Source of the DNA: an uncultured delta proteobacterium
GTDB taxonomy: Bacteria > Desulfobacterota > Deferrimicrobia > Deferrimicrobiales > Deferrimicrobiaceae
Assembly: GCA_963770975.1 (NCBI GenBank)
Contig: CAVYRM010000008.1
Span: 79,858-143,857, forward strand
DNA length: 64,000 nt
Reading direction: 5' to 3'
Position numbers and translations under genes: made by a program. Every line of letters starts with the position of its first letter. Positions within the stretch are counted from its first letter, which is position 1. The notes under the pieces were generated by a model that made no database searches, had not been told where the DNA came from, and was given only the letters and a program-made list of their open reading frames with translations. Positions 8,683-64,000 of the stretch are shown in pieces.

Positions 8683-8686
8683 CCCG

Positions 8687-9592
8687 ATGCGCCGCGTCCT
8701 GAAATATGTCCTCCTCGCTTCGATGAGCCTTGCGGCCGCCGGCGGCTCCCATGCGGCCGAGCAGGTCAAGTTCAAGCAGATGGCCCCGATCTACGTGGAC
8801 GGGAAAGGGGCGGGGATCCGGCAGCCGGAAGGCGTCGCCTGCCGGGGGAACGCCCTTGTGGTGGCCGACACGGGGAACGGCCGGCTCCTGCGGTACACGA
8901 TCGCCGGGGAAACATGGACGCCCGGCGGGGAAATCGTCCTGCCCCAGCTGACGTCCCCGATTCGCGTGGACGTCAATTCGAAGGGGGAGATCTTCGCGCT
9001 GGACGGGACACTCCCGCAAGATCGTGCGGATCGCCCCGTCCGGCGACTTCCTGGGGTACGTCGCGCCTGCGGGGGAGGTACAGGGGGCCATCGTGCCGCG
9101 AAGCCTCCGGTTCGACGGGCAGGACAACTTGTACCTGCTCGACGTCCTCTCCGCCCGGATCCTCGTGTTGGACCCGTCCGGAAAGGTTCAGCGGGAGATT
9201 CCCTTTCCGAAGGGATACGGCTTTCTCTCGGACCTCGCCGTGGATGCGGGCGGGAACGTCTATCTGCTGGACAGCGTCCGGAAGAGGGTGCTACAAGGTG
9301 GCGAAAAACTCTGCCGAAGCGGCTCCGCTGACGGGAAGTCTGAAGGAAGAAGCGTATTTCCCCACTCTCCATCGCCACGGACAAACAGGGAACGATCTTC
9401 CTGGTCGACCAGAACGGCAGCGGGGTCGTCATCCTCGGGCCGGACGGCTCTTTCCGCGGGCGTCGCTTGAGCATGGGATGGAAGGAAGGGTTCCTGAGAT
9501 ACCCGGCGCAGATGTGCATCACGGAGAACGGCACCGCGTTCATCGCGGACCGGGGGAACAACCGGGTCGACGGCTTCCTGATCACGGAATAA
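8687..9592 (+). CDS. Secreted NHL-repeat beta-propeller protein. About three frame changes.
   Basis: The signal peptide is MRRVLKYVLLASMSLAAAGGSHA. The NHL-like repeats are GIRQPEGVACRGNALVVADTGNGRLLRY, IRVDVNSKGEIFALDG, LRFDGQDNLYLLDVLSARILVLD, LAVDAGGNVYLLDSV, DKQGTIFLVDQNGSGVVILG and ITENGTAFIADRGNNRVDGF. The stop is at 9590-9592. Confidence 0.65.
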
Positions 9593-21285: not shown

Positions 21286-21337
21286 CCGGCGGCGGCCGGC
21301 GGGAATCCGCCGGGAGGCTCCGGGAATCACGAAACCG

Positions 21338-22615
21338 ATGGAGAAAACGACGGACCGGGAGGCGCAATTGAGGCGAATCGCGGCGTGCGCGGCGGCGGTG
21401 TGCATCATCCTGTTCGGAACGACGGCCTTTCCCGCACCGAAGGACCTGGTCGGCAAACCGGCGCCCGGCATCAGCGGAGCCAGTCCTTTCGGGAAGCCGG
21501 TGTCGCTGTCGGCCTACAGAGGGAAGGTGCCGACGGTCCTCACCTTCTGGTCGATCTACTGCACGACGTGTGTCGAGGAGATGGCGGGTCTCGAACGCCT
21601 GTACGGAAAGTACGGGCCGGGAGAGATCGCCGTCATCGCCATCAACGAGGATGCCGACGTCGGCGTGGGCCGCGTGAAGACGTTCCTCGACCGGTCGGCC
21701 GCCACGCCGGAGGGGAAGTTCACGTACGACATCCTCTTCGACGGCAAGGGGGAGGTCCTGGCCGCCTACGGGGTGTCCCGCCTGCCGACCCTCTTTTTCA
21801 TCGATCGCGAGGGGATCGTGCGGGAGGTCGTCGAGGGGGGCGGCGAAGGCAGGGAGACGCGGGTCGTATCCGCGATCGGGAAGCTCGTCGGTGCGGTGGG
21901 GCCGGAAGGTCTCCGGGAGGCGGCCACGGAGACCTCCTACGATCTCGAAGCGAAGGTGCCGCTTTGCGGAACGTACCGGGACGGGAAATGGTACCGCCCC
22001 CTCGACCTCGACGAGTCCCGGAACGACGTCCTGGCCCGCTCCCGGGCGGAAGGCGAGGATTTCCTCCGGCGGGAGGCGGTGCGCATGGCGCTGAAGGAGC
22101 TGGGGGTGACCCTGCATGCGGAGGAGCGCGTTCCCGTGTGCCGGACGGCGTACGGCATGGAGATCCGCTCCCCGTACCATCGGAAGGACGCCCTCGAACG
22201 TTTCATGGAACGCATGAAGCTGCCGCGGATCCTCGAGGTCGAATCCCAGGAGACGATGGAGCGGGAACGGGAGATCACGCTGTACCGGCGGATCAAGGTC
22301 ATCCTTCCGGCGCTGCGGGAGCAGCTGCAGAAGGACAGCTACGCCGCGGAGCGCAGCGACCTCCGGATCCGGTTCTCGCGCGCGACGCCGTTCGAGGAGC
22401 GTACGTTCATCGAGGCACTGTACGAGCAGTACCCGTACCTGTCGACCGTCCGCGAGGTACCTTCGGAATTGCGGGGGAGGCCGGAGTACGTGGTTTCCTC
22501 GCACGCGGCCCCCGCGAAGGCGGTCGAGGAGCTGCGCCTGCTCGACGTCGGGGCGCGGAAGATCGAGGTGGAGCTTCTCGCCGGCGGGATCGCCGAGGTG
22601 ACGATGTGGAGGTGA
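21338..22615 (+). CDS. Membrane-anchored TlpA-like thioredoxin (CTTC active site) with a roughly 240-aa C-terminal domain of unknown function.
   Basis: The anchor is IAACAAAVCIILFG. The redoxin core is VLTFWSIYCTTCVEEM...VIAINED...LPTLFFIDREG. The rest of the protein is not recognisable to me. Confidence 0.6.
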   Translation: MEKTTDREAQLRRIAACAAAVCIILFGTTAFPAPKDLVGKPAPGISGASPFGKPVSLSAYRGKVPTVLTFWSIYCTTCVEEMAGLERLYGKYGPGEIAVIAINEDADVGVGRVKTFLDRSAATPEGKFTYDILFDGKGEVLAAYGVSRLPTLFFIDREGIVREVVEGGGEGRETRVVSAIGKLVGAVGPEGLREAATETSYDLEAKVPLCGTYRDGKWYRPLDLDESRNDVLARSRAEGEDFLRREAVRMALKELGVTLHAEERVPVCRTAYGMEIRSPYHRKDALERFMERMKLPRILEVESQETMEREREITLYRRIKVILPALREQLQKDSYAAERSDLRIRFSRATPFEERTFIEALYEQYPYLSTVREVPSELRGRPEYVVSSHAAPAKAVEELRLLDVGARKIEVELLAGGIAEVTMWR

Positions 22616-38584: not shown

Positions 38585-41590
<3,006 letters not shown>

Positions 41591-41598
41591 CCGTGCGC

Positions 41599-41676
41599 GT
41601 CCCCATCGTCTAGTTCGGCCAAGGACACCGCCCTTTCACGGCGGCGACGCCGGTTCAAATCCGGCTGGGGACGCCA
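41599..41676 (+). tRNA. tRNA-Glu (anticodon TTC).
   Basis: The acceptor is GTCCCCA/TGGGGAC. The anticodon arm is CCGCC-CTTTCAC-GGCGG, the T-arm is GCCGG-TTCAAAT-CCGGC, and CCA is encoded. Confidence 0.9.
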
Positions 41677-41825
41677 CATTCTCCCGTTGCTGCGTCATTG
41701 CGCCGGATTTGAACGGGCGAGTGGCGCCGAGCGATCAGCGAGGAATAGCGCGACGCACGGGAGCGCGACAGCCACGAGCCCCGCCGCGAAGGCCGGAGCC
41801 TTGGATGGGCGACGGCTCAGGCGGG

Positions 41826-41859
41826 CAAATCCGGCTGGGGACGCCATTCTTCCGTTGCT
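41826..41859 (+). repeat. Duplicate of the 3' end of tRNA-Glu plus its downstream flank.
   Basis: CAAATCCGGCTGGGGACGCCA (41656-41676) recurs exactly at 41826-41846. The flank CATTCTCCCGTTGCT recurs as TTCTTCCGTTGCT. An inverted, degenerate T-arm copy (GCCGGATTTGAAC) lies between them at about 41702-41714. Confidence 0.8.
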
Positions 41860-41892
41860 TTTTCCCCGATCCAAGTAAAAAATGGTGCGGTC

Positions 41893-43711
41893 ATGGATTT
41901 CCTCCACCCGGACAACCTCCTTCGATTCGGCTACAAGGATTGCGTACTGTGCGAGGTGGACCGCCCGGGGGAGGAGAAACGGTGCAGGAACTGCTCCGGC
42001 CGGCTCGGCCAGCGCGACCGCCTCCTCTGGGAGATCGGCAGGGAAAGGATCCGGCGGACGGCCGGGCGTCTCTCGCTGATCTACCCGGGGGTCGGGCATA
42101 TCTATTCCGGCCGGATCGTCTACGGGATCTTCTGGGCGATCCTCCTTCCCCTGAGCCTCGGCCTCGTCCTCAACGTCTGGTCCGGGATCACCTTCGGGCA
42201 CGGGTTCCTCCTGCTGGAGGCGGGTGCGATCTGGTGGATGGCCTGGGCCGACGCGAGCCGGGGACCGCGGGAGCCGGTGGCACCCTGCGAAGGGGCGTGC
42301 CCCGCCGGTATCCGGGTCCCGGACTACATCGCGCTCGTCCGGACGGGCCGGCCGCTCGAGGCGCTGGCGCTGGTCCACGACAGGCTTCCGTTCGCCGCCT
42401 TCTGCGGCAGGGCCTGCACCCACCCGTGCGAGCAGAAATGCGTCCGGAACGAGTACGGCGCGCCGATCTCCATCATGGCGATCAAGCGGTACGCGGCGGA
42501 CCGGGGATACGCGTCGGGGATCCTTCCGTCGTCGGAAGTGTCGGAAGGGGTTCCCGGACCGAAGGTGGCGGTCGTCGGCGCCGGAGCGTCGGGACTCTCC
42601 GCGGCGAACACGCTCTCCCGGCTCGGGGCCCGCGTCACCGTGTTCGACCCGAACGAGGAGCCCGGCGGGATGATGCGGTACGGCGTGATGGAGTTCCGGT
42701 TCCCCCAGGAGGCGCTGCTCTCGGACGTGAAGTCGATCTTCGCCCGCGGGGTCCACTTCCGCGGCGGAAAGACGTTCGGCAGGGACGCGACCTTTTCCTC
42801 GCTTGCGCGCGAAGGGTTCGACGCCGTGCTGGTCGCCGTCGGCACTCGGGAATCCGTCCGGCTTCCCGGAGCGGGGAGCGGAGGAGCAGGGGTTCCACGA
42901 CGCCTTGTCGTTTCTTTCGCGGATCCGAAAGCGCAGGCCCCCGCACCTGTACGGGCGGGTCGTCGTGATCGGGGGCGGGAACGTCGCGGTCGACGTGGCA
43001 CGCGCCTCCCTCCGCATGGGGGCTTCCGAAGTCACGATCGCCTGCCTCGAGTCCCCGGAGACGATGCCCGCCTTCCCCTGGGAAGTCGAGGACGCGGTCG
43101 CGGAAGGGACGAAGGTCGTCGCGAACACGGCGGTGAAACGATTCCTGATAGGGGACGGGAGGGTATGCGGGTTCGAGGCGCTGAAGGTGGAGCGGATCGA
43201 CTTCGACCCGAAGGGGAGGGTCGTGCCGCAGACGGTTTCCGGAAGCGAATTCGAGGTTTTGGCCGACACGATCGTCATGGCGATCGGCAGCCGGGCCGAT
43301 CTCCCGTTTCTCCCCGACGGCGCGGTACGGAAGGCGGTCGACCCGACGCGTCATGTTTTCCGCTTGCATTTTCCCGGCGGGGAACCTAGAATCGCCGCCT
43401 ATATGTGCGGGGACTGCGTCCGCGGCCCGGGGACGGTGGTGGAAGCCTCCGCCTCGGGGCGGGCGGCGGCATTGAATATCTACGCCGATCTCTGCGTCGA
43501 AGAGGTCGGGAGGGTGCGGTACCGGGACAACTACCGCAGACGCGGGGAACCCCAGGTGACCGACCGGCCCGAGTGGCGGTCCCGCCGCCACGCGGAGCGC
43601 CTTCCTCCCGACGCTCGCCGTGGGAGTTTCGAAGAGGTCGAAAAAAGGTTCACCGATCGCTGTGCGCTGGAGGAATCCGATCGGTGTGCACGGTGCAATC
43701 TCGCGCTGTAA
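41893..43711 (+). CDS. GltD-like NAD(P)H-dependent FAD/Fe-S oxidoreductase with an extra N-terminal zinc-ribbon and two TM helices. One frame change near 42870.
   Basis: The N-terminus is CVLCEVD...CRNCSG, followed by the hydrophobic segments IVYGIFWAILLPLSLGLVL and GFLLLEAGAIWWMAW. The GltD-type core has CEGACPAG...CGRACTHPCEQKC, VAVVGAGASGLSAA, EPGGMMRYGV and VVVIGGGNVAVDVA. The C-terminal part lies in the 42803 frame. Confidence 0.65.
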
Positions 43712-43739
43712 ACCACAAGGGGGAAGGGGGTGAGCAGGA

Positions 43740-44084
43740 ATGAAGAAGTTCGCAACTCTCATGGCGGTCGTGATGGTGGCGGTGTTCTCCGCCGGGGTGC
43801 TGGTTGCCGCCGACGCGCCGGAGAAGATCGTCATCAAGCAGGTGCAGAAGACGAAGCCGCCGGTCACGCTGCAGCACAAGGCCCACGCGGAGCGGATCAA
43901 GAATTGCCAGGCGTGCCATCACAAGGACGCGGCCGGCAAGGAGCAGAATTGCTTCGCATGTCACAAGGCCGAGAAGAAGGGGGACGCGGTCGCCTTCAAG
44001 GACGCAATGCACACCAGGTGCAAGGGTTGCCACACGAAGGAGAAGAAGGGTCCCACGAAGTGCGACGGGTGCCACGCGAAGTAG
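43740..44084 (+). CDS. Periplasmic class III (c3-type) tetraheme cytochrome.
   Basis: It is 114 aa with the signal peptide MKKFATLMAVVMVAVFSAGVLVAA. The 4 CxxCH motifs (CQACH, CFACH, CKGCH, CDGCH) fall within about 70 aa. It is Lys-rich, like c3/c7 proteins. Confidence 0.8.
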   Translation: MKKFATLMAVVMVAVFSAGVLVAADAPEKIVIKQVQKTKPPVTLQHKAHAERIKNCQACHHKDAAGKEQNCFACHKAEKKGDAVAFKDAMHTRCKGCHTKEKKGPTKCDGCHAK

Positions 44085-44114
44085 CACTCGGGCAGGTTGT
44101 TCGATCGCGGTGAA

Positions 44115-44143
44115 AGAGGGCGGGGAGAACCCCGCCCTCTTTC
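44115..44143 (+). terminator. Terminator-like hairpin after the c3 gene.
   Basis: AGAGGGCGGGG-AGAA-CCCCGCCCTCT followed by TT. The T-tail is short. Confidence 0.45.
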
Positions 44144-44229
44144 CGTCCGGTTCCGGCTCTTTTCCGTTTGACGACCGGTTCCTTATTTGGTACACAGTAT
44201 ACATCCCGGATAACTGAAGGTGACCCTGC

Positions 44230-45592
44230 ATGACTGACGAGAAACGTGCTCCATCCCCGATGGACCGGGTATGGAGTTTCTTCATCTCGGTAAGGCTCGC
44301 CATCATCACGCTGATCGTCCTCGCCGTCGCCTCGATCTTCGGCACGATCGTCGAACAGAACCAGCCTCCCGAGAAGTACCACCAGATCTACGAGGACTGG
44401 GCGTTCACCCTGATGGACAAGATCAACCTGTTCGACATGTACCACTCCTGGTGGTTCCTCCTCCTCCTCGTCCTGTTCACCGTGAACCTCTCCTGCTGCA
44501 CGCTCGACCGCTTCCCGAAGGTGCTGAAGGTGGTGCGCAACCCCCGGACGAAGCTGGACGAGAGCCTCGAGAAGACGTTGTCGCTTTCGGACCGGTGGAA
44601 GAAGAAGGGCGCCCTTTCGGAATGGGCGGGGAAGTACGCGGAGGCGCTCTCCGCTTCCTTCGCGAAACCGAAGGTCACCGAGGAGGGAGGCGAGGTGCAC
44701 CTGTACGCGGAAACCGGGGTGGCGTCCCGGTTCGGCGTCTACGTGACGCACCTCTCCATCATCATCATCTTCATCGGAGCGATCATCGGCAACGTCGTCG
44801 GTTTCAAGGGATACGTGAACATCCCGGAAGGGGAGGCGGTCTCCCAGGTCCCCGATCCGGGGAGGGACCCGCGTGCAGGAGCTCGGGTTCACCGTCCGCT
44901 GCAACGCCTTCACCCTCGAGACGTACCCGAGCGGCCAGCCCAAGGCGTACAAGTCCGACCTGAGCGTCATCGAGGGGGGACGGGAGATGGCCCGGAAGAC
45001 GATCGTGGTCAACGACCCGCTCCAGTACAGGGGGATCTGGTTCTACCAGTCGAGCTACGGGCAGGCGGGGGGCGCGACGGCGCAGGTCGTCGTCTCCCGC
45101 AAGGACGGGACCCCCGCGGGCAAGCTCTCCCTCGCGGCCAACGAGGCGGTTCCGATCGACGGATACGGGGTCATCCGCGGCGTGAACTACGAGGACAACT
45201 TCCAGGGACACGGGCCCGCGCTCCAGGTCGTCGTGGAGAAGCCGGGGAAGCCCGCCTCCTCCTTCTGGATCTTCCGGGGGCGCCCCGACATCGACCGGGA
45301 CCGGGGCGACTCGCTTGTGTTCTCCTTCGAAGGCCTGAGTTCGAAGATGTTCACCGGGCTCCAGGTGGCGAAGGACCCGGGGGTGAACATCGTCTGGCTC
45401 GGGTGCGCGCTGATGGTGATCGGGATCATCATCGCGTTCTTCCTCTCGCACCAGCGCGTGTGGATCCGGCTGGCCCAGGGTACGGACGGACGCGTCGAGG
45501 TCGTCCTGGCCGCCTCCGCGAGCAGGAACCGGCTTGCCTTCGAGAATAAATTTGAGAGAATACAGACCGGAATCAAGGCGGTGGGTCAATGA
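44230..45592 (+). CDS. resB: System II cytochrome c biogenesis protein ResB/Ccs1, with one frame change at the C-run near 44850.
   Basis: MDRVWSFFISVRLAIITLIVLAVASIFGTIVEQN...WWFLLLLVLFTVNLSCCTLDRF...GFKGYVNIPEG, then (in the 44873 frame) ELGFTVRCNAFTLETYPSG...IVVNDPLQYRGIWFYQSSYG...LQVAKDPGVNIVWLGCALMVIG. Confidence 0.85.
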
Positions 45593-46428
45593 GCAACGTC
45601 ATCCTGTTCAACCTCACCACGGTGCTCTTCGGCGTGGCGTCCGCCCTTTACCTCGGCGCCCTCTACGCGAAGAACGACAGGATCTCCGTGTTCGGCACCT
45701 GGGTCTGCATCCTCGCCGCGGTCGTCTCCACCGCGGCGCTCGGGGTTCGCTGGTACGAATCGTACCAGATGGGGATCGGGCGAATACCCGTCACGAACCT
45801 CTACGAGTCGCTCGTCTTCTTCGCATGGTCGGTGAACCTGTTCTACCTGGTCGTGGAGTGGAAGTACCGAACCGCACCTTCGGCGCCTTCGTGATGCCGA
45901 TCGCCTTCGTCACGATGGTGTTCGCCGTCTATAACGACAGCAGCATCCAGCCGCTGGTGCCCGCGCTGCAGTCGTACTGGCTCCACGCCCACGTCATCAC
46001 CTGCTTCGTCGGGTACGCGGCGTTCGCCGTCTCCGCCGGGGTGGCGCTCATGTACCTGCTCAAGGCCCGCCAGGAGGAGGCGAAGATCTCGGAAGGGCGT
46101 CGTCGGCCTGCTCCCCGCGTGCAAGATGCTCGACGACCTGGTCTACCGGTCGATCATCTGGGGGTTCCCGTTCCTGACCGCCGGGATCATCACCGGCGCG
46201 GCGTGGGCGAACTACGCCTGGGGAACGTACTGGTCGTGGGACCCGAAGGAGACCTGGTCCCTCATCGTGTGGCTCGTCTACGCGGCGTTCCTCCACGCGC
46301 GGATCACGCGCGGGTGGCACGGCAAGCGCGCCGCCATCCTCTCGATCGTCGGGTTCCTGGCCACGATCATGTGCTACCTCGGCGTCAACCTGGTGCTCTC
46401 CGGCCTCCATTCCTACGGAGGGGGTTGA
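45589..46428 (+). CDS. ccsA: System II cytochrome c biogenesis protein CcsA/ResC (heme exporter/lyase), with two frame changes.
   Basis: [13 protein letters not shown]..., then [10 protein letters not shown]...[23 protein letters not shown], then the WWD-type motif [28 protein letters not shown]. Its start overlaps the resB stop (ATGA). Confidence 0.85.
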
Positions 46429-46486
46429 TGCGTCCTTTTCGAATCGCTTTCTGAATCCACATCTGCAGCAGCAGGGAGGAGTCGGC

Positions 46487-47789
46487 ATGCGAAAATTCTG
46501 GACGGTCCTCGGCACGACGCTCTGTTCGGTTGCATTGTCCGCGCTGTTCGTCGGGGTTTCGACGGCGGCGGACACCTGCGTATCGGCCAAGTGCCATGCG
46601 CAGATGGGGAAGGCGCAGTACGTCCACGGCCCGGTCGGCGTGGGGCAGTGCACCGTCTGCCACGTGGAGGCGAAGAAGGGGCACCCCACCGGAAAGAAAC
46701 CCGACTTCAAGCTGGTGGCGACGGGGAAGGCCCTCTGCGAGAAGTGCCACCAGCCGGTGGACAAGTTCGAGTACAAGCACACCCCGGTGAAGAAGGGCGA
46801 TTGCATCGGCTGCCACGACGCGCACCAGTCCGACGCCCCCGAAGCAGCTGAAGAAGAAGAAGACCTCGGAACTTTGCTTCTCCTGCCACAAGAACACCCA
46901 GCAGGTGAAGAAGTTCCAGCACGGCCCGGTCGCCTCCGGGGATTGCAACGTCTGCCACAACCCGCACTCCTCCCCGAACCCGCACCAGCTCGAGGCCAAG
47001 GGGAACGACGTCTGCTTCCTGTGCCACGAGGACCGCAAGGCCGAGTTCACCCGGAAATACCCGCACAAGCCCGCGATGGAGTCGTGCCTCAAGTGCCACG
47101 ACGCGCACAACTCGGACTCACCCGTTCATGCAGACGAAAGAGGGTACGGCCCTGTGCCTCTCGTGCCACAAGAAGATGGACGACCACCTCAAGGGCTCGC
47201 GACGGTTCGCCACGGGGCGCTCGACAAGGGGACGTGCACCACGTGCCACACGCCGCACTCCTCCGACTTCCCGCGGCAGCTCAAGGCGGGCACCAAGGAC
47301 ATCTGCTACACTGCCACAAGGAGATGGGAGCCACGGTGCGGGCGGCGAAGAACCTCCACGGACCGGTGCAGCAGAACGACTGCTACGCCTGCCACGACTC
47401 GCACGGCAGCGAGAACCCGCCAGATCCTCAAGAAGTACTTCCCGAAGGAGTTCTACAAGCCGTACGCCACCGAGAGCTACGCCCTCTGCTTCGACTGCCA
47501 CAACAAGGACATCGCCCTCGACAAGATCACGACGAAGCTGACCAACTTCCGCAACGGCGACGTGAACATGCACTTCCTCCACGTGAACAAGGAGAAGGGG
47601 CGGTCGTGCAAGGCGTGCCACGAGGTCCACGCGGGGAGCCAGGAGAAGCATATCCGCAAGGAGGTGCCGTTCGGCGGGAGCTGGAAGCTGCCGGTCAACT
47701 TCACCAAGACGTCGAACGGCGGGACGTGCGTGGTCGGGTGCCACAAGCCCAAGACCTACGACCGCGTCAATCCGGTGAAGTACGAGTAG
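46487..47789 (+). CDS. Multiheme c-type cytochrome with about 13 CxxCH motifs plus CX4CH and CX3CH variants. At least five frame changes.
   Basis: The signal peptide is MRKFWTVLGTTLCSVALSALFVGVSTA. The motifs I read are CVSAKCH, CTVCH, CEKCH, CIGCH, CFSCH, CNVCH, CFLCH, CLKCH, CLSCH, CTTCH, an interrupted ICY.CH, CYACH, CFDCH, CKACH and CVVGCH. The sense alternates among the ORFs at 46487, 46905 and 47128 and unlisted segments. Confidence 0.7.
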
Positions 47790-47801
47790 GAGGCGGTGGC
47801 G

Positions 47802-48813
47802 ATGGCGCAGACGCACCCTTCGCGGTTCCATCGTCCTGTTCACGGCGCTCACGGCGATCTTCCTCTCCACCGTGCCGGGGGGCGCATCGGCGTTCCGCAA
47901 CATGAAGGAGGGGAGCCCCGCGCTCCCCTTCGCCCTCAAGGATTTCGAGGGGAAGGACGTCGAGTGGAAACCCGATTCCGGGAAGGTGACGGTTCTCTCC
48001 TTCGTCAAGCTCTCCCAGGAGCGGTCGATGGACCAGTTGAAGGACCTCGTCGCGCTCCACAAGGAGCTCTCCGGGAAGGGGATCGACTTCCTCGTCGTCG
48101 CCTCCTACGGGGACACGGCCGCCGAGGCGAAGAAGGCGATCTCGGAGCTCGGGATCGCCTTCCCGATCCTGCACGACAAGGACCAGAAGGTGTACGGCGA
48201 CTACGGCCTCTTCATCCTGCCCGCCACGGGGATCATCGGAAAGGACGGGAAGTTCGCCTTCGAGCACGGGAGCCACGGGCGCGATTTCCGGGACGTGGTC
48301 GGCGGAAAGGCGAAGGTCCTCGCCGGGCTGATGACGGAGGAGGAGTACAAGAAGCTCGTCACCCCGGTGGAATCCGTGAAGAAGAGCAAGGAGGAGGGGG
48401 AGGCGGACCGGCTCATCTCCCTCGGCCGCACGCTCCTCAAGCGCGGAATGCCCGACAAGGCGGCGGAGAAGTTCGCAAAGGCGGTGGAACTCGATCCGAA
48501 GAACCTGGTCGCCCTCCTCGCCTACGGGGAGTCGCTGGTCGCTTCGAAGAAGCTCGACGAGGCGCTCGTCCAGTTCACCAAGGCGAAGGAGATCGCACCG
48601 TCCAGCAAGGAGGCGGCGCTCGGGATCGGCACCGTCCACCTCGAGAAAGGGGAGGTCGACAAGGCGATCCAGGAGATCTCCGACGCGGCGATGCTGAACC
48701 CGAAGCCCGAGAAGGCGTACTTCTGGCTGGGGGCCGCCTACGAGAAGAAGGGCGATCTTCCGAACGCGGTGAAGTATTACAAGAAGGCGGTCGAGAAGAT
48801 CATCAAGGAGTAG
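47802..48813 (+). CDS. Secreted thioredoxin-fold (redoxin) plus TPR fusion that lacks the CxxC active site. One probable frame change sits just after the start codon.
   Basis: The signal peptide is RRRTLRGSIVLFTALTAIFLSTVPGGASA. In the redoxin-like segment ALPFALKDFEGKDV...VLSFVKLSQERSMDQL...GIAFPILHDKD...LPATGIIGKDG, the usual W-C-x-x-C position reads LSQERS. The C-terminal TPR repeats are AAEKFAKAVELDPKN and YFWLGAAYEKKGDLPNAVKYYKKA. Confidence 0.6.
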
Positions 48814-48828
48814 GCGAAAGGTGCCGCG

Positions 48829-49295
48829 ATGAAAAGGTCGCTTCGGGGGGCGCGTTCCCCGAAGGCTGCGATGTTCGTCTTGCTGGCGGGGTGGATCCTC
48901 CACCCCGCCTTTCCCGTTTTCGGCGCCCCCCCGGTGTTCGACAAACCCGGTTACATCTATCATCCCGGACGTGAAGAAGTGCGCGGCGTGCCACCCGAAA
49001 GACCGGAAGGGGTATTCCGTCGCGCGTCCCGTCGACGCGTTGTGCTACCGGTGCCACATAGCGGAAAGACGCGAAAAAGTACGTCCACGGACCGCTGGGG
49101 AGCGGGGAGTGCACGTCGTGCCACGATCCGCACGGTTCGCCGAACCGTGCGCTCGCGGTCGCTTCCCCGGAGGTCCTCTGCCCGACGTGCCACGACCAGG
49201 CGAGCTCCAGGAGGCACATGAAGCAATCCCGGGGGAAGGGGTGCGTCGCCTGCCACGACCCCCACTCGTCCGAAAAGAATTTCCTGTTAAAGTGA
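48829..49295 (+). CDS. Small secreted pentaheme c-type cytochrome, with two frame changes.
   Basis: The signal-like N-terminus is FVLLAGWILHPAFPVFGA. The motifs are CAACH, CYRCH, CTSCH, CPTCH and CVACH. It ends in DPHSSEKNFLLK (stop 49293-49295). Confidence 0.6.
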
Positions 49296-49331
49296 CGATG
49301 ACCGAGGCGGCGGGTCGACTCGAGGGGAGCG

Positions 49332-50468
49332 ATGCGCGGGAGGGGGGCGTTCGGAAAGATCGCGGCGGTCCTCTTCGTTTTCGCCCTGGGGCTCTACGCC
49401 TCCCCGAAGGCGGCGGCCGCGTTCAAGAACGTCCAGACCGGGGCGGAAGCCCCGGCGTTCAAGCTGGCGGATCTCTCCGGGAACGAGGTCTCCCTCGAAA
49501 CGTTCAAGGGGGACAACGCCGTGATCCTCGTCTTCTGGGCCACCTGGAGCGGGCGCTCCCTCGACGAGCTCCGGGACGTCCAGAAACTCGTCGCCGAGTA
49601 CGGGCCGAAGGGGCTGAAGGCCGTCGCCGTCAACGTGGAACACGAACACACGACCGAGCGACGACCTGCGGATGATCCGGAGAAGGCCGCCTCCCTCAAC
49701 CTCACCTTCCCCGTGCTGCTCGACAAGGGGCTGGACACCTTCCGCAACTACGGCGTGGTGGCGGTTCCCTCCACCGGAACGCTCGGACGCGGGAACGTCC
49801 TCCGCGACGCCTTCAACGGGTACCCCTCTTTCGTCTTCCTCGAGCTGAAGTCGCAGGTCGAGACGCTGCTCGGCATGAAGCCGGTGGAAACCGCCGTCGC
49901 CGCGAAGGCCGACACCTCCCACAAGCCGACCCGCCCGGCGCTGCTCAACTACAACCTGGGCCGGCGGCTCTACGCGTTCGGCATGGCCGACAAGGCCGAA
50001 CCGAAGCTGCGGGCCGCGGCCGCGGCCGACCCGGCGTGGGCGGCGCCCAACGTCCTGCTGGGCGAGGTGCTCCTCTCCCGGTCGAAGAAGGATCCGGGCG
50101 AAGATCGCGGAGGCGAAGAAGGCGTTCGAGTCCGCCGTCGCGTCGGAGGAGGGGAACGTGGTGGCGCGCACCGGATTGGCCCGCGTATACTGGTCCTCCG
50201 GCCAGGCGGCCGACGCGGAGCGGGAGATCGACGCGGCGCTCAAGAGGAACGGGACGTACACGCCGGCCCTCCTGCTCAAGGCCGGCATCCTCGCCCGGAA
50301 GGGGGACGCTCCCCGGTGCGGAAAAGATGATCCGCGAGGCGATCGAGCTGAACGCGCGCGATCCGTCAGACCTACGCGCTCGCCGGCCGGGCCTACGAGG
50401 AGGGGAAGGATCTCGCGAAGGCCGCGGCGATGTACCGCAAGGCGTGGGAACTGAACGGGGAGCACTGA
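49332..50468 (+). CDS. Secreted thioredoxin-fold plus TPR fusion in which both active-site Cys are replaced by Ser (WSGRS). About three frame changes lie in the TPR part.
   Basis: The signal peptide is AAVLFVFALGLYASPKAAAA. The redoxin core APAFKLADLSGNEVSLETFKGDNAVILVFWATWSGRSLDEL...LTFPVLLDKG...VVAVPST reads SGRS where CxxC is expected. The TPR part is LLNYNLGRRLYAFGMADKAE..., VARTGLARVYWSSGQAADAE and ALAGRAYEEGKDLAKAAAMYRKA. Confidence 0.6.
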
Positions 50469-50610
50469 TGCAGCGGGTGCGCCGCCTTCATCGTGACGGC
50501 GGTTTCGGCGGCGTCGATCCTGGCGTACGGCATCTTCCGCGAGGAGATCGGCGAGGTGATGTTCAACGCCGCGATGCTTTGACTGTCGTGCATCGGGGTC
50601 GGGTGACTCC

Positions 50611-51476
50611 TTGGGATACCTGAAGCGCCGGATCTTCCAGGGGATGGGGGCCGTCCTCCCGAACTCCTACGTCCAGGGGTTCCTGACCGCGTCCCTCTAC
50701 CAGGGATCGCTCAAAAGCGTCTGCTCCCCGCTGCTCAACTGCTACGCCTGCCCGTCCGCCCTCTTCTCCTGCCCCATCGGCACGCTCCAGCACTTCATGG
50801 TGACCGGGAACGTCCCGTATTACGGCCTGGGGACCCTCTCCGTGGTCGGCGCCACGGTGGGGCGGATGACGTGCGGGACGCTGTGCCCCTTCGGTTTCCT
50901 GCAGGATCTCCTCTACAAGTTCCGGGCGTGGAAAGTCTCCATCCCCGTCTGGACGCGGTATTTCCGCTACGCGGTCCTGGTCGGGCTCGTCTTCCTCATC
51001 CCGTACCTCACCCACGAGAACTGGTTCTCGAAGCTGTGCCCGATGGGGACGCTGATCGGCGGCCTGCCGTGGGTCACCCTGAACGCCGAACGTCCGCTCG
51101 ATGATCCGCGCGCTGTTCTGGGTCAAGATCGCGATCCTGCTCTTCTTCGTCACCACCTCCACGATGGTGAAGCGCCCGTTCTGCCGCGCCGTCTGCCCGC
51201 TGGGGGCGATCTTCTCCCTGTTCAACAAGTCGAGCTTCCTGCAGCTCGCGTGGAACCCCGACACCTGCACGAAGTGCGGGAAGTGCCAGAAGATCTGCCC
51301 GGTGGACATCCGCCCCGACCGGAACCCGACGAACCCGGACTGCCTGCGGTGCCTCGACTGCACCCGGTGCCCGAGCCTCAAGCTCACCACGGTGTTCCAC
51401 CGGCGCCGTTCGACGCTCCCCGGTATCCCGCCGGTCGAGGCCACCGGGGCGGGCTACCGCAAGATCCGCCGCCTGA
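50611..51476 (+). CDS. NapH/MauN/NosR-type membrane polyferredoxin (4Fe-4S binding). At least two frame changes; the 3' end is uncertain.
   Basis: It has the CX3CP-type motifs LNCYACPSALFSCPIGTLQ, CGTLCPFGFLQD and FCRAVCPLGAIF, then the ferredoxin motifs CTKCGKCQKICP and CLRCLDCTRCP. A TGA at 51474-51476 in a third frame overlaps ATG 51476 (TGATG). That suggests a separate downstream kinase gene. Confidence 0.55.
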
Positions 51477-53003
51477 TGCTGCGGGCGGGTCCGGGCTCTC
51501 CGTTGCGGTTTCTGCCGAGCTCCCTCTTCTACAGGATGTCGCTCACCATCGGCGTCGTGCTGGTGGTCGTCTTCGGGATCTCTTCCTACCTCACCTACCG
51601 GATCCAGTCGGAACAGGCGTTGACCGCCACCAAGACCCAGGCGATCCTGCTCACCCGCGGCTTGAAGAACACGATCCGGATCGGCATGGAGTCCGGCCAC
51701 ACGGAGTCGCTCGCGTCGATCTTCCAGACGGTCGGCGCCTTGCCCGGCGTGGAGAAGCTGCGGGTCTTCAACGAGGAGGGGAAGATCCGGTACTCCGCGA
51801 AACCGGCCGAGGTCGGGCCACCTGACCGACGAGCTCGACTACACGGTGTACCGCAGCCCCGAGCGGAGCACGCCGTTCCAGAGCGAGGTGACCGGCCACC
51901 GGTCCTTCTGCATGGTGGAGCCGATCGAGAACGACGCGAAGTGCCGACGGTGCCACCCGAAGGAGATCGAGGTGCTCGGCGTGCTCGACGTCTGCCTCTC
52001 GATGGAGGACACGGAGAAGAGCATCGCGTTCAACCGCCTCCTCCTCCTCTCCTCCACCGGTCTCGCGCTGATCCTGACGTCGGGAATCATCAGCGTCCTC
52101 CTCAAGCGGTTCGTCTCCCGGCCGGTGGAACGTCTCGTGAAGACGATGGAGTCGGTGGAGGCCGGGAAGCTCGACGGCCGGGTGGACATCCGCAGCGGGG
52201 ACGAGCTGGGGCGCCTCGGGAACAGCTTCAACGAGATGATCCGGAAGCTTGTCGGATGCGCAGGACGAGCTCGAGAAGTTCCACCACAGGCAACTGGCGC
52301 GCGCCGACCGGCTGGCGTCCCTCGGCGAGATGGCGGCGGGGATCGCCCACGAGATCAAGAACCCGCTGGCCGGGATCTACGGCGCCGCCCAGGTCCTCGT
52401 CGACGAATTCCCGGAGGGGGACCCGAAGCGGGAGATCGTCGGGGAGATGATGGTCCTCCTGAAGCGCCTGGACAACACGATCAGGGACCTGCTGAACTTC
52501 GCGCGCTACACGGAGCCGCAATTCACGAAGGGGAACCTGAACGACGTGATCGACAAGGTCCTGTTCCTCGTCCAGCAGATCCCCGAGGGGAAGCGGGCGC
52601 GGATCGTCCGGGAGTTCGACCCCGGGATGCCGGAGATCGAGATGGACCAGGAGCAGGTGAAGCAGGTCTTCCTGAACCTGGCGCTCAACGCCCTCCAGGC
52701 GCGCCCCGACGGGGTGACGCTCACCATCCGCACGCGGGGAGACGTCCCCGCCGAGGGGGGCGACGGTGCGGCACCGCGCCCGCTACGTGATGGCGTCGGT
52801 GTCCGACGACGGCCCGGGGATCCCGCCGGACAAGCTGGGGAAGATCTTCCAGCCGTTCTTCACGACGAAGGAGAACGGCACGGGCCTCGGGCTCTCGATG
52901 ACCCGGAAGATCCTCGACCTGCACGAGGGAAGGATCACGGCGGAGAGCGAGGCCGGGAGGCGGCGCGACCTTCACCGTGTTCCTGCCGAAGGTGAAGCCG
53001 TGA
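51476..53003 (+). CDS. Sensor histidine kinase whose periplasmic domain carries a CxxCH heme-c motif (2TM, HAMP, HisKA, HATPase). About four frame changes.
   Basis: TM1 is [19 protein letters not shown]. The periplasmic segment ends in [31 protein letters not shown]2 is [22 protein letters not shown]. The HAMP segment is [41 protein letters not shown]. The H-box is [15 protein letters not shown], the N-box [10 protein letters not shown], and the G-boxes DDGPGI and GTGLGLS. The stop is at 53001-53003. Confidence 0.7.
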
Positions 53004-53075
53004 GATCCGGCTACGCCGATACCCGTTTACAATTTCCGGCGGACAGCTCCTTCCGGATCGGATATAATCGGGGCC

Positions 53076-54541
53076 ATGGCGCGATCGAGGATCCTCGTGG
53101 TGGACGACGAGCGGATGATCCGCTGGTCGATCCAGCAGACCCTTTCGAAGGACGGCCACGTCCGTGGCCGCCGTGGAGACGGGCGAGGAGGCGGTGGCGC
53201 AGGCGACCGACGAGATGCCCGACCTCGTCTTCCTCGACATCACCCTCCCGGGGATCGACGGCATCGAGGTGCTCCGGCGCCTCAAGGCCCTGGACCCGTC
53301 CGTCGCCGTCGTGATGGTCACCGCCACCGACGACCTGAAGACCGCCGTCGAGGCGATGCGCCTGGGCGCCTACGACTACGTCAGCAAGCCGTTCGACCTC
53401 GACCGCCTGCGGGTGATCGCCCAGAACGCGCTCGACCGTCACGAGTTGCGCCAGGAGGTCGAGTTCCACCGGAAGGAGTCGGTGAAGCGGTACGGGTTCC
53501 ACCGGATCGTCGGTTCGAGCCGGAAACTCGCGGAAGTGGTCGAGGTGGCGAGGAAGGTGGCGAAATCGGACGCCGCGACCGTGCTGCTCCAGGGGGAGAG
53601 CGGCGTCGGGGAAGGACCTGTTCGCCCAGGCGATCCATTACGAGAGCGCCCGCGCCACGCGGCCCGTTCATCCCGATCAACTGCACCGCCCTGCCCGAGG
53701 AACTGCTCGAATCCGAGCTGATGGGGCACGAGAAAGGCGCCTTCACGGACGCGAAGTTCGCGAAGAAGGGGCTCTTCGAGGTGGCCGACGGCGGGACGAT
53801 CTTCCTCGACGAGATCGGCGACATGAAGCCCGGCCTCCAGGCGAAGCTCCTGCGCTTCATCGAGAACAAGGTCTTCCGCCGGGTCGGCGGGCACCGGGAC
53901 ATCTCCGTCGACGTCCGCATCGTGGCGGCGACGAACCGGAACCTCGACGAGCTCGTCCGCACGGGGCGAGTTCCGGGAAGACCTCTTCTTCCGGCTGAAC
54001 GTGATCCCGATCCGCATCCCGCCCCTGCGGGAGCGCCGCGAGGACATCCTGCCCCTGGCGGAGCATTTCTTCTCCGAGTTTTCCAACGACATCCGGAGGC
54101 CCGGGAGCGGTTTCTCGGACCTCGCGAAGCGCCAGATGACGGCGTACGACTGGCCGGGGAATGTCCGCGAGATGCGGAATATCATCGAGCGCGCGCTGAT
54201 CCTCGGCGCGGCGGGCATCGTGGAGCGCCTCGACCTCCCCGTGCCGACCGGGGCGCCGGAGCGTCCCGGGCGTCCCTGGCCGGACCGGCTCCTCCCCGAA
54301 CCGGCCCGGGTGGGGAGCCGATTCGCATCCCCGGGGATCGGAGCCCTCATCCGGCGGCGCCGGCCGGAGCGGACACGGATTCCGCCTCCCGCCCTCCGGG
54401 ATCGTGCTCGAGGACCTCGAACGGGACCTCCTGCTCCAGGCGCTGGAGACGACCCAGGGGAACCAGACGAAAGCGGCGGAGATGCTCGGCCTCACCCGGG
54501 ACGCCCTCCGGTACCGGATGAAGAAATTCGGCTTCCTGTAA
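53076..54541 (+). CDS. Sigma-54-dependent response regulator (NtrC family), with at least five frame changes.
   Basis: It has the receiver [12 protein letters not shown]...[14 protein letters not shown]...YDYVSKPFD, the AAA+ core [11 protein letters not shown]...[15 protein letters not shown]...[12 protein letters not shown]...[11 protein letters not shown]...[19 protein letters not shown], and the [29 protein letters not shown] (stop 54539-54541). Confidence 0.8.
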
Positions 54542-54599
54542 TCGCTCGTCTGATCGCTCGTCCCCGGACAAGTGGGGGATATCCCCCTCCACCGTATAA

Positions 54600-54660
54600 G
54601 GTTCACACCGAATTCTCTATATAACTGATCGTATTCACACCGGAATTCGATCGGGGTGTA
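54600..54660 (+). promoter_or_regulatory. Candidate enhancer-binding sites upstream of the sigma-54 promoter.
   Basis: TTCACACCGAATTC (54600-54613) and TTCACACCGGAATTC (54634-54648) form a direct repeat separated by an AT-rich stretch. An inverted GGGGTGTA follows at about 54653-54660. Confidence 0.35.
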
Positions 54661-61871: not shown

Positions 61872-63030
61872 TTGTCGCGATGCCGGGTCTTGCTGTTCCG
61901 GGGGATCGTATCCGTTTCCCTGCTCATTGCATCCCTCATGCTGGGGAAAATCCTTCAAGCCTCGGCGGGAGTCCCTGCGTATATCGGCTCCGAAAAATGC
62001 GCCTCCTGCCACCAGATCCAGTACAAGGGGTGGGTCAAGACGTTCCACAGCACCGTGGTGGGGGATGCGAAGAAGGACCCCTCGGTGATCATGGCCGACA
62101 TGTCCGACCCCGATCTGCCGTTCAAGAAGGAGGATATCCACTACACGATCGGCGGCCACTGGGACCAGCGGTACCTGACGAAGATCGGCGACGACTATTA
62201 CATCCTTCCCCGTCTCTGGTCCGTGCAGAGCAGCAAGTGGCGCCCCTACAGCACCTACGGCTGGCAGAAGCGCCCCTACTCGAAATATTGCATCGGCTGC
62301 CACTCCGTCGGCTTCGACCCGAAGACGCGCGGGGTCGTGGAGCACTCCGTCGGGTGCGAGTCGTGCCACGGCGCCGGAGTCGCCCACTCGGCGAAACCGA
62401 GCAGGGAGAACATCGTCAACCCGAAGCGGCTTTCCGAGGACAGGTCGGAGGAGATCTGCGCCTCCTGCCACGTGCGCGGGAAGGACCTTTCCGGGGAATA
62501 CTTCTTCCAGCTCGGGTGGAAGCCCGGGGACGACCTCGCGAAGTACTATGTTCCGCTCGACAAGAACGAGGGGGAGAGCAACGACGACGCCATCCACCGC
62601 CTCTGGGACCAAGTGGAGATCCGACCGGGAGTCGCAGTCCCGCTCCCGGTGCGAGGTGTGCGGCATCCACCAGAACGTGAAACCCCAGGGGGAGAAGATC
62701 AGCGTCGACGCCATCTGCATGAGCTGCCACGAGTACGACGAGAAGCAGCTTTCCCTGCACACCCGCCACAAGACGCTTGCGAGCGTCGGCTGCACGGATT
62801 GCCACGAGGAGAAAGAACCGGACCTGAATGAAAACCGCGAGAACAACGTCCATTCCTACGGCTACTTCCTGATCCACCCGCAAGGGTGCTGGGACGACAA
62901 GATCCACAACCGGTGCGGGAAATGCCACGCTGACAAGCCGAAGAAATGGGCTTATGATACGGTGTTGAGGTTGGAAAAAACCGGTCGTGATCGACCACTG
63001 ATATCTTCACTCTCCTCGGGGGCAGGGTGA
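61872..63030 (+). CDS. Multiheme c-type cytochrome of the cytochrome c554-like family (7 CxxCH plus one CxxCGxH). One frame change near 62600; both ends are uncertain.
   Basis: The signal-like N-terminus is RVLLFRGIVSVSLLIASLMLGKILQASA. It has CASCH followed by QYKGWVKTFH and IGGHWDQRYL, then CIGCH, CESCH, CASCH, CEVCGIH, CMSCH, CTDCH and CGKCH. An A-run near 62975 could place the true stop at about 63000. Confidence 0.6.
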
Positions 63031-63591
63031 TGAGAACCGCTTTCAGGATGGCACCGGTACTTCTGTGCATGGTGTTCGCGTTGGGGCTTGGAGCGTCGCC
63101 CGCCCTGGCCGCGGGCGACACCGCGATGCGCTTGAAGATCGGCGAAAAAGCTCCGGATTTTCGCCTCAAGGACGTGATGACCGGGAAGACGGTCACCCTC
63201 TCCGAGTTCGCGGGGAAAAAGGTCGTCATGCTCGAGTTCTGGGCGACCTGGTGCGACATCTGCAAGCGGGAGATGCCCAACCTCGTCAAGTTGCACACAC
63301 GCGTGGGGGCCCAAGGGGTTCGAGCTCCTCTCCATCGTGCTCCCGTCGGGGAACATCGCCGACGTGAAGAAGATCATCACGGAAAAGAAGCTGACCTACC
63401 CCGCGCTGCTCGACGCCGACCTGTCGGTGGCGACGAAGCTCTACGGGCTCGCCGGCCCCATTCCGCTCAAGGTCGTGATCGACCACAAGGGGATCATTCG
63501 CTACTCCCACGTGGGGGATTACCCGCCGGGCGAGGACGAGTTGCCGTTCGTCCTCGAGGACCTCGTGAAGGAGATGGGGAAGGGAAAATGA
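63027..63591 (+). CDS. Secreted TlpA-like thioredoxin (CDIC), with one frame change near 63305.
   Basis: The signal peptide is MAPVLLCMVFALGLGASPALA. The core is APDFRLKDVMTGKTV...VVMLEFWATWCDICKREMP, then (in the 63337 frame) FELLSIVLPSGN...YPALLDADL...IPLKVVIDHKG. Confidence 0.7.
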
Positions 63592-64000
63592 CGCGGCGTT
63601 TCCTGCCCCTGCTTGTCGTCCTGCTCGTCTCGATCGCCTACCCGGCCCTCGTCCGCGGAACGGTCGGTCAAGGTGGGGCAGACGGTCCCGGAATTCTCCC
63701 TCCCCGGGCTGGACGGGGAGACCAGTCTCCTTCCACAAGGACATCCGCGGGAAGGCCCCGCTCACGGTGCTCTTCTTCATGACCACGGCGTGTTCCGCCT
63801 GCTACGAGGAGACTCCGGGAGATCCACGAGTTCGCCTCGAAGCACCCGGGCAAGATCGAAACCTGGGCCGTCGCGGTCGACCTTCGCGGGGCGCAGACGG
63901 TGGGTCCCTACCAGCAGTCGAACCGGTTCCGCGTGAAATACCTGATCGACCCGAAATTCTCCCTTCCCCGGGTCTTCGGATTCCACTACACCCCGTCCCT
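63588..64000 (+). CDS. Secreted TlpA-like thioredoxin (CSAC), 3' partial, with about two frame changes.
   Basis: The signal peptide is RRFLPLLVVLLVSIAYPALV. Then VGQTVPEFSLPGLDGE..., PLTVLFFMTTACSACYEE and WAVAVDLRGAQTV...YLIDPKFSLPRVFGFHYTPS. It resembles the 58987-59535 protein. Confidence 0.6.

Follow-up and report, generated by a model that had tools for sequence, protein, structure and literature searches.

Within a 64,000-nucleotide stretch of DNA from an uncultured delta proteobacterium of the Deferrimicrobiaceae (contig CAVYRM010000008.1 of assembly GCA_963770975.1, positions 79,858 to 143,857; hereafter the window), two genes situated between nucleotides (nt) 47802 and 50468 encode proteins, designated here A and B, that have lost the catalytic cysteines of the redoxins to which they are related. 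Judging from their translated sequences and predicted folds, A and B are paralogues destined for the periplasm, each comprised of a redox-dead, ResA/TlpA-derived thioredoxin fold and a tetratricopeptide repeat (TPR) domain. The conserved partner of these redoxin-TPR proteins is a 15-haem MtrA/DmsE-like cytochrome encoded upstream, and the System II genes for ResB and CcsA (ccsBA) are accessory, being found nearby in only a minority of lineages. It is tentatively proposed here, with somewhat less than even confidence, that the redoxin-TPR proteins may serve as redox-dead, dedicated periplasmic holding or assembly factors for this 15-haem cytochrome.

Loss of the Active-Site Cysteines

The closest sequences in the PDB to the N-terminal domains of both proteins are those of ResA (4nmu, 1st9, and variants), with profile E values against 4nmu of 1.9e-29 for B and 1.3e-23 for A. 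When aligned with ResA (4nmu, 1st9/2h1b), the FWATWSGRS segment of B falls onto the W-C-x-P-C motif (FWGTWCKPC), placing serine at both cysteine positions, and the FVKLSQERS segment of A occupies the same columns, with glutamine and serine at the two cysteine positions. The codons concerned read TGG AGC GGG CGC TCC in B and CAG GAG CGG TCG in A. The proline of the cis-Pro loop, found within LPAT in A and AVPST in B, is invariant in the joint alignment. An independent metagenome-assembled genome (MAG), represented by locus L009 and encoding proteins 91% identical to B and 92% identical to A, specifies Ser, Gln, and Ser at the cysteine positions with identical codons, its differences at the motif consisting of one synonymous Arg codon in B and Asp for Glu at the variable middle residue of A. 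In the intact homologues of A and B from a related locus (L001), no cysteine occurs anywhere in either protein, and the cysteine-less state extends to homologues in the complete genomes of cultured Geobacter and Oryzomonas. Having no thiols, the L001 proteins are chemically incapable of thiol chemistry or disulfide reduction.

The same loss is seen across the wider family, which was collected by searching a profile of both N-terminal domains against 1.84 billion representative proteins. This search returned 227 clusters (at 50% identity) with E values of 1e-30 or lower, and the best 150 of the 227 hits were aligned for inspection of their motifs. All proteins among these 150 that combine a single redoxin domain with TPR repeats are without both cysteines and carry either the motif F-W-A-T-W-S-x-[RNK]-S or the A-like variant Q/H/K-x-x-S; both serines, together with the basic residue preceding the second serine, are conserved in the family. 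The tandem-TlpA hits without TPR repeats in this set, by comparison, nearly all retain CxxC in at least one domain, and the hits that bear CxxC are of this tandem type. The A family comprises approximately 110 clusters (336 residues) and the B family approximately 120 clusters (377 residues), all without these cysteines. Since every redoxin-TPR protein inspected is devoid of both cysteines, the loss goes back to the origin of the fusion family and is maintained by selection. Relatives of A and B bear automatic names in public databases, including “TPR repeat protein,” “redoxin domain-containing,” “TlpA disulfide reductase family,” and “peroxiredoxin.”

Domain Architecture and Predicted Structure

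The readable open reading frame (ORF) of protein A spans 47872-48813, with the ATG at 47802 lying in a different frame and a 1-nt indel located just 3′ of this start codon; its signal peptide (…RGSIVLFTALTAIFLSTVPGGASA/FRN) extends upstream in the same frame. Protein B, whose stop codon occupies 50466-50468, is interrupted by frameshifts near 50101, 50305, and 50366, as well as by a compensated pair at approximately 49650-49680. Protein A matches the Pfam families AhpC-TSA (6e-14), Redoxin (1.4e-7), and TPR_2 (8e-23), and protein B matches AhpC-TSA (9e-18) and Redoxin (1.5e-13) in its first frame, followed by TPR matches in the shifted C-terminal frames. A peroxiredoxin function was considered and rejected, as the peroxidatic cysteine of the PxxxTxxC motif is missing and the domain contains no cysteine, so that the AhpC-TSA match reflects a shared fold.

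The C-terminal TPR domain, absent from ResA, is approximately 180 residues in length, and multiple Pfam TPR families exceed their cut-offs in the two proteins. No NCBIfam model reaches its cut-off for either protein: ResA comes closest among the non-TPR models, with 49-60 bits where 170 are required, and the best families on the TPR side are PilW, Tgl, and MamA, all under cut-off. AlphaFold2 models of A and of a B homologue with 90% identity, whose predicted local distance difference test (pLDDT) scores are 90 and 83, respectively, consist of a thioredoxin fold followed by 8-10 paired TPR helices. When these models were searched with Foldseek, ResA entries (4nmu, 1st9, 2h1b) ranked at the top, with template modelling (TM) scores normalised to ResA of 0.81-0.91.

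A preliminary description of the window, made from its sequence, had claimed that both proteins keep the redoxin scaffold and its cis-Pro region, that their cysteines are replaced (LSQERS in one, WSGRS with both cysteines changed to serine in the other), and that both carry C-terminal TPR repeats. These claims are borne out: ResA is the top match by sequence and by fold and the proline is invariant, the substituted positions are those of the ResA cysteines, and the repeats are recovered both as Pfam matches and as AlphaFold2 helices. The same description had named the restoration of cysteine codons by corrected reads as an outcome that would speak against it, and the contrary was seen, with both the independent MAG and the homologue clusters being cysteine-less. 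It had also drawn on the TPR modules of CcmI/NrfG-type proteins, which chaperone apocytochromes; no clear sign of a specific relationship to these was seen in the TPR part: the CcmH/CycH TPR model PF23914 scores 35.9 bits in A against a cut-off of 42, with generic TPR models scoring much higher, and an NCBIfam scan of A and B gave no CcmI or NrfG match.

The 15-Haem Cytochrome and Its Genomic Association With Redoxin-TPR Proteins

The cytochrome encoded upstream of protein A carries, in the window, a CX4CH motif at nt 46577 and a CX3CH motif at nt 47727, with approximately 13 CxxCH motifs between them. This agrees with the layout of its family, in which a first CX4CH (CVxxxCH) is followed by 13 CxxCH and a last CX3CH motif (homologue of approximately 435 residues). 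The layout is conserved across phyla in 42 loci, the first motif being a canonical CxxCH in Binatia-type loci. The last CX3CH sits in an invariant tail, GGxCxxGCHxPxxY(D/N)R, in these 42 loci and in 77 of 80 metagenome loci. The presence of two atypical haem sites at opposite ends of one protein is unusual. The only significant PDB sequence match of the cytochrome is 6r2q_A (2.9e-15), which we take to be the Shewanella MtrCAB complex, the returned molecule name not being that of a cytochrome; against the DmsE-family NCBIfam model, the cytochrome scores under the cut-off.

In close relatives, the gene order begins with the GltD-like protein, tetrahaem cytochrome c3, ResB, CcsA, the cytochrome of approximately 435 residues, A, the pentahaem cytochrome, and B, and continues with a small membrane ORF, the NapH-like protein, an octahaem cytochrome, a sensor kinase with a haem motif, and a sigma-54 regulator. 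The octahaem cytochrome gene is missing from the window (51478-51536), where most relatives have one after the NapH-like gene (as at 13991-14938 in L001). In distant lineages ResB and CcsA are lost, and the core consists of the large cytochrome, a redoxin-TPR protein, and a 5- or 8-haem cytochrome. Neighbouring genes are spaced by 8-10 nt or overlap by 4 nt.

The association was quantified in both directions, by means of stop-to-stop ORFs in flanks of up to 10 kb, so that a gene counted as absent is one lying outside the flank. GTDB species representatives were scanned with the patterns VF[WF]A[TN]WS and GVVAVPST, which are biased to B-like proteins, and non-TPR “WS..” TlpA-like loci (n = 23) served as the control, the patterns yielding no CxxC control. 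A homologue of the 15-haem cytochrome was present in 34 of 53 TPR-fused loci, with the redoxin-TPR gene following it immediately in almost all cases, and ResB and CcsA (13/53) and a NapH-like gene (15/53) were found less often; none of the control loci contained the 15-haem cytochrome, ResB and CcsA, or a NapH-like gene (0/23). Conversely, a cysteine-less redoxin gene was located within 2.5 kb downstream in 53 of the 65 metagenomic cytochrome copies with at least 900 bp of downstream DNA, and one of the 12 exceptions carries a TPR-only gene in place of the redoxin gene. ResB and CcsA were found in 6 of the 30 metagenome loci with at least 3 kb of upstream DNA. In both search directions, the adjacency to the cytochrome recurs in Deferrimicrobia-like, Rokubacteria, Nitrospirae, Binatia, Geobacteraceae, Zixibacteria, and Methylomirabilia MAGs.

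The neighbourhood given in the preliminary description, with ResB/CcsA and a large multihaem cytochrome preceding A and a pentahaem gene (5 CxxCH) between A and B, was found as stated. It had also proposed a survey of co-occurrence with ccsBA and multihaem genes, which upheld a strong link to the multihaem cytochrome (34/53 forward, 53/65 reverse, and 0/23 in the control, so that homologues are not randomly placed with respect to cytochromes) and did not uphold the link to ccsBA, found in only 13/53 and 6/30 loci. The claim of a factor dedicated to System II was thus overstated, since ccsBA occurs in a minority of loci and the partner is the 15-haem cytochrome.

A cultured example is provided by Geobacter sp. 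AOG2, in which one cytochrome gene is followed by genes for a 188-residue TPR protein and two redoxin-TPR proteins (W-D-K-K-S); this locus (L086, 1-11134) has no ccsBA and no second cytochrome nearby. The cytochrome and redoxin-TPR genes of AOG2 directly follow a PilY1 and minor-pilin cluster. A variant cluster is found in six loci (L008, L027, L029, L030, L035, and L038) from Binatia, Methylomirabilia, and “Deltaproteobacteria” MAGs, in the order 14-CxxCH cytochrome, W-S-D-N-S redoxin-TPR, a gap, Q-x-F-S redoxin-TPR, and 8-haem cytochrome (the last not in L008). The gap measures approximately 1.1-1.5 kb (0.2 kb in L008), and a HEAT-repeat gene is present there in L008, the sole locus with called genes, where an NHL-repeat protein and two large proteins without annotation are also encoded.

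Comparison With Known Maturation and Chaperone Systems

Proteins A and B share with ResA, CcsX, TlpA, and CcmG the same thioredoxin-fold subtype, an exported N-terminus, and the cis-Pro loop, and B additionally retains the F-W-A-T-W active-site context of ResA. Like those of ResA and TlpA, their genes lie in linkage with cytochrome c genes, joined in this lineage by those of ResB and CcsA. Unlike ResA, TlpA, and CcmG, they have neither active-site cysteine (S-x-R-S in B, Q-x-R-S in A), and they differ further from ResA by the added TPR domain and by the low NCBIfam ResA score given above. System II has been described as consisting of synthases and thiol oxidoreductases only, with substrate specificity and the attachment of haem at atypical sites ascribed to extra synthase isoenzymes (PMC12285233).

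The closest functional counterparts of A and B are NrfG, CcmI, and SirG together with SirH, as well as CnoX. TPR proteins that act on apocytochromes are known from other systems. The TPR domains of NrfG and CcmI bind the C-terminal region of NrfA (PMC12285233), and in the Shewanella sir cluster the dedicated TPR chaperone SirG and the TlpA/ResA-like protein SirH are encoded beside a cytochrome with an atypical haem site (PMC6976685, PMC12285233). Similar to NrfG, CcmI, and SirG, which bind apocytochromes and often have their genes beside that of a target with an atypical haem site, proteins A and B possess TPR repeats and are encoded adjoining a cytochrome with atypical haem sites (CX3CH, CX4CH); the former, however, belong to System I and its CcmF/NrfE-type lyases, whereas the neighbours of A and B are the System II components ResB (PF05140) and CcsA (TIGR03144). 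CcmI moreover has a two-helix membrane module that A and B do not, and SirG and SirH are separate proteins, whereas A and B fuse both modules and their redoxin part is dead. A and B may be viewed as a fused, redox-dead version of TlpA-plus-TPR maturation helpers.

The order of a thioredoxin fold followed by TPR repeats is also that of CnoX/YbbN of E. coli, which has a degenerate SxxC motif and is a holdase, an activity that its SxxS mutant keeps (PMC10998233); CnoX acts with GroEL/DnaK in hypochlorous acid (HOCl) stress. CnoX is cytoplasmic, of the classical thioredoxin type, and has retained the C-terminal cysteine, whereas A and B are exported, of the TlpA/ResA type, and linked to cytochromes, and no YbbN structure was among the matches listed in the PDB sequence and fold searches (the best 50 for the latter). 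A further parallel is the uet cluster of Tenderiales, in which CcsA, CcsB, and a TPR protein are encoded in an extracellular-electron-transfer cluster and a maturation role has been proposed from genomics (bioRxiv 10.1101/2022.05.06.490989). In both arrangements, the genes of a System II pair lie with that of a TPR protein inside a cytochrome cluster, but the “NrfG-like” protein of uet is TPR-only as described, with no redoxin domain, and belongs to another lineage. In the literature searched and in NCBIfam, no description of a cysteine-less ResA/TlpA-TPR fusion or of its link to cytochromes was found, consistent with the statement in the preliminary description that such a factor was undescribed, and the MBNT15/Deferrimicrobium genome paper makes no mention of the redoxin-TPR family.

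Proposed Function and Alternative Explanations

The reading favoured here is that of a dedicated cytochrome helper. A fold of the ResA/TlpA type lost both catalytic cysteines long ago and retained the cis-Pro loop and the overall groove. Through this inactive module, each protein would engage CxxCH-type stretches of the apoprotein in its unfolded state, no mixed disulfide being formed. The part held by the TPR module would be an extended or C-terminal stretch, for which the invariant GGxCxxGCHxPxxYDR tail with its CX3CH motif is a candidate, and the two modules together would keep the long apoprotein soluble and hand it over to the System II synthase, this being the adjoining ResB/CcsA in this lineage and a housekeeping copy elsewhere. 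The helper role would probably extend to the downstream 5- or 8-haem cytochrome. A more specific version, in which the redoxin-TPR proteins would be the missing apocytochrome chaperones of System II, specialised for haem attachment at the CX4CH and CX3CH sites of a widespread 15-haem MtrA-like conduit, with the dead ResA module reading the haem-binding motifs and the TPR arm holding the C-terminal tail, appears rather unlikely as it stands. The fold, the cysteine loss and its conservation, the signal peptides, the synteny, and the motif layout of the cytochrome are observed; apocytochrome binding, the role in haem attachment, and specificity for atypical sites are inferred. In favour of the helper reading are the derivation from ResA, the selection acting on the family, the synteny seen in both directions, the AOG2 locus with its single cytochrome, the atypical haem sites, and the CxxC TlpA-like genes elsewhere in the window that can cover the reductase role, and a holding factor is made plausible by the precedents of NrfG/CcmI, of SirG together with SirH, and of CnoX.

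Several observations weigh against such a role. Only the closest B clade retains the equivalent of ResA Glu80, which is Gln in A and variable elsewhere; the TPR part is only generically TPR-like, with PF23914 under its cut-off; and the geometry between the two domains is uncertain in the AlphaFold2 models, with a predicted TM score (pTM) of approximately 0.5. ResB and CcsA are not within 10 kb in approximately 75% of loci, and 12 of the 65 cytochrome copies have no adjoining redoxin gene. In about 16 of the 53 family loci (approximately 30%), mostly with W-S-P-R-S and often in tandem, no cytochrome is nearby, which suggests that the basic activity of the family is not cytochrome-specific. Finally, the tight operon coupling would be compatible equally well with a stoichiometric subunit.

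This last point leads to the main alternative, which we regard as possible but doubtful, namely that A and B are structural components without redox function, built permanently into a periplasmic complex for electron transfer that is made up of the 15-, 5-, and 8-haem cytochromes with the NapH-like protein as the membrane entry. Their TPR and inactive thioredoxin domains would keep the rod-like cytochromes aligned or tether them to the envelope. The alternation of cytochrome, A, cytochrome, and B, at distances of 8-10 nt or with a stop codon overlapping the next start, fits such a scaffold, as does the survival without ccsBA of the 15-haem cytochrome, a redoxin-TPR protein, and a 5- or 8-haem cytochrome as a triad. 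The resemblance of the cytochrome to MtrA, part of a multi-protein conduit, points in the same direction, and so does the addition, in Binatia-type loci, of HEAT-repeat and NHL proteins and of large unknown ones, as is typical of structural assemblies. A fixed scaffold is harder to reconcile with the three TPR-type genes per one cytochrome in Geobacter sp. AOG2, with the 12 of 65 cytochrome copies that have no adjoining redoxin gene, and with the approximately 30% of the family unlinked to cytochromes, and there is no known reason to retain a ResA-type groove and cis-Pro for pure scaffolding.

The loci without a cytochrome within 10 kb (about 16/53) also bear on a second and improbable alternative, according to which the family would act as a general periplasmic pseudo-redoxin-TPR adaptor in envelope, pilus, or secretion assembly and its cytochrome link would reflect co-regulation in metal-respiring bacteria. 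The identity of the best TPR-side families (PilW, Tgl, and MamA, all under their cut-offs) and the abutment of the AOG2 locus on PilY1 and minor-pilin genes are in line with this; the bidirectional adjacency to one cytochrome family over at least seven phylum-level groups, and the complete lack of a cytochrome link in the non-TPR control loci (0/23), argue against it.

That the cysteine-less motifs are an artefact of sequencing error, pseudogene formation, or recoded selenocysteine, so that A and B would be ordinary ResA/CcsX reductases, is a negligible prospect in spite of the approximately one frameshift per 500 bp across the cluster (40000-54600) and of database names such as “TlpA disulfide reductase family protein” or “peroxiredoxin,” given that the codons (AGC/TCC and CAG/TCG) are none of TGC, TGT, or TGA and are matched in the independent MAG, that all intact homologues are without the cysteines, including those of the complete Geobacter and Oryzomonas genomes and the entirely cysteine-free L001 proteins, and that housekeeping genes are frameshifted too, as expected of assembly errors and not of decay. 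Sequencing error behind the loss was ruled out by the codons, the independent assemblies, and the family-wide conservation, and selenocysteine recoding by there being no TGA at the motif.

Gene Content and Assembly Quality of the Locus

The genes of the cluster are listed in Table 1. The window has a G+C content of approximately 65%, and between approximately 40 and 55 kb nearly all genes are split across reading frames, as judged from ORFs and from tblastn comparison with intact relatives. The split genes include purA (40179-41475), those for the GltD-like oxidoreductase, ResB, CcsA, both cytochromes, protein B, and the NapH-like protein, and those for the sensor kinase and response regulator. 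Because housekeeping genes are equally affected and close homologues are intact elsewhere, these frameshifts are best regarded as indel errors of an unpolished assembly; pseudogenisation or decay of the cluster was ruled out, since purA and the regulators are also frameshifted and the homologues are intact.

Table 1. Genes of the redoxin-TPR cluster, with window coordinates (nt) and the sequence features by which they were assigned.
Feature	Coordinates	Strand	Evidence and remarks
GltD-like NAD(P)-binding Fe-S flavoprotein	41893..43708	+	tblastn to L001 homologue over two frames; frameshift ~42870
Small tetrahaem cytochrome c3	43740..44084	+	ORF; homologue with 4 CxxCH and Pfam Cytochrom_CIII
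ResB/CcsB-type System II component	44230..45592	+	Frameshift ~44850; homologue matches PF05140
CcsA/ResC-type System II haem lyase subunit, frameshifted	45589..46428	+	NCBI model name “cytochr_II_ccsB”
15-haem MtrA/DmsE-like cytochrome, several frameshifts	46487..47789	+	CX4CH, ~13 CxxCH, CX3CH
Protein A: signal peptide, Cys-less ResA-like domain, 8 TPR helices	47802..48813	+	
Pentahaem cytochrome, frameshifted	48829..49295	+	5 CxxCH at nt 48980-49242, over two frames
Protein B: signal peptide, Cys-less ResA-like domain, ~10 TPR-like helices	49332..50468	+	
Small conserved membrane ORF (…LAYGIFREEIGEVMFNAAML)	50469..50582	+	Between B and NapH-like gene; start uncertain (indels)
NapH/MauN-like membrane ferredoxin-type protein	50611..51478	+	Frameshift ~51085
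HAMP/HisKA/HATPase sensor kinase, frameshifted	51536..53000	+	Periplasmic CRRCH haem motif at nt 51942
Sigma-54-dependent response regulator, frameshifted	53076..54541	+	

The assignment of CcsA is supported by its intact L001 homologue, which scores 291.7 bits on TIGR03144 against a cut-off of 187.6. The GltD-like protein scores 376 bits on the NCBIfam model PRK12771, under its cut-off, and the NapH-like protein matches the NCBIfam napH subfamily at 4e-15, likewise under cut-off. Full-length homologues of the pentahaem cytochrome carry a non-haem N-terminal domain. The haem motif of the sensor kinase suggests a haem-based redox sensor that may govern the cluster via the adjoining sigma-54 regulator.

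The GltD-like flavoprotein, whose gene is conserved at the head of the cluster, carries a zinc-ribbon at its N-terminus together with a transmembrane segment, an unusual membrane-tethered form of this type of enzyme. Genes for tRNA-Lys(TTT) and tRNA-Glu(TTC) are located at 41515-41676, between purA and the cluster. The small membrane ORF is 78% identical to a 55-residue ORF of L001 (tblastn), the copies of the window and of L001 (12888-13055) having the common ending …GYGIFREEIGEVMFNAAML, and a 41-residue ORF occupies the equivalent position in L005 (8131-8256). Elsewhere in the window, large multihaem cytochrome genes are densely arranged at 5500-8750, with many overlapping tblastn matches to the cytochromes of the cluster. 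Genuine CxxC-containing TlpA/ResA-like genes are found at approximately 21300-22200 (TFWSIYCTTC) and approximately 63030-63999 (EFWATWCDIC, TTACSACYEE); their products are candidates for the true apocytochrome reductases and could supply the reductase role.

Implications

One consequence concerns annotation, in that a redox-enzyme function is excluded for hundreds of database entries named “TlpA disulfide reductase” or “peroxiredoxin.” The triad made up of the 15-haem cytochrome, a redoxin-TPR protein, and a 5- or 8-haem cytochrome can serve in genomes as a marker of an uncharacterised module for electron transfer, and the existence of cultured carriers (Geobacter sp. AOG2 and FeAm09, Oryzomonas sagensis, and O. 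rubra) makes the proposal of a cytochrome helper directly testable. If this proposal is true, a redox-dead ResA-TPR protein would add a third class of component, a substrate-holding factor, to System II, and it could account for the maturation of multihaem apoproteins that are very long and have atypical haem sites in metal-respiring bacteria of the Geobacter, Nitrospira, and MBNT15 types.

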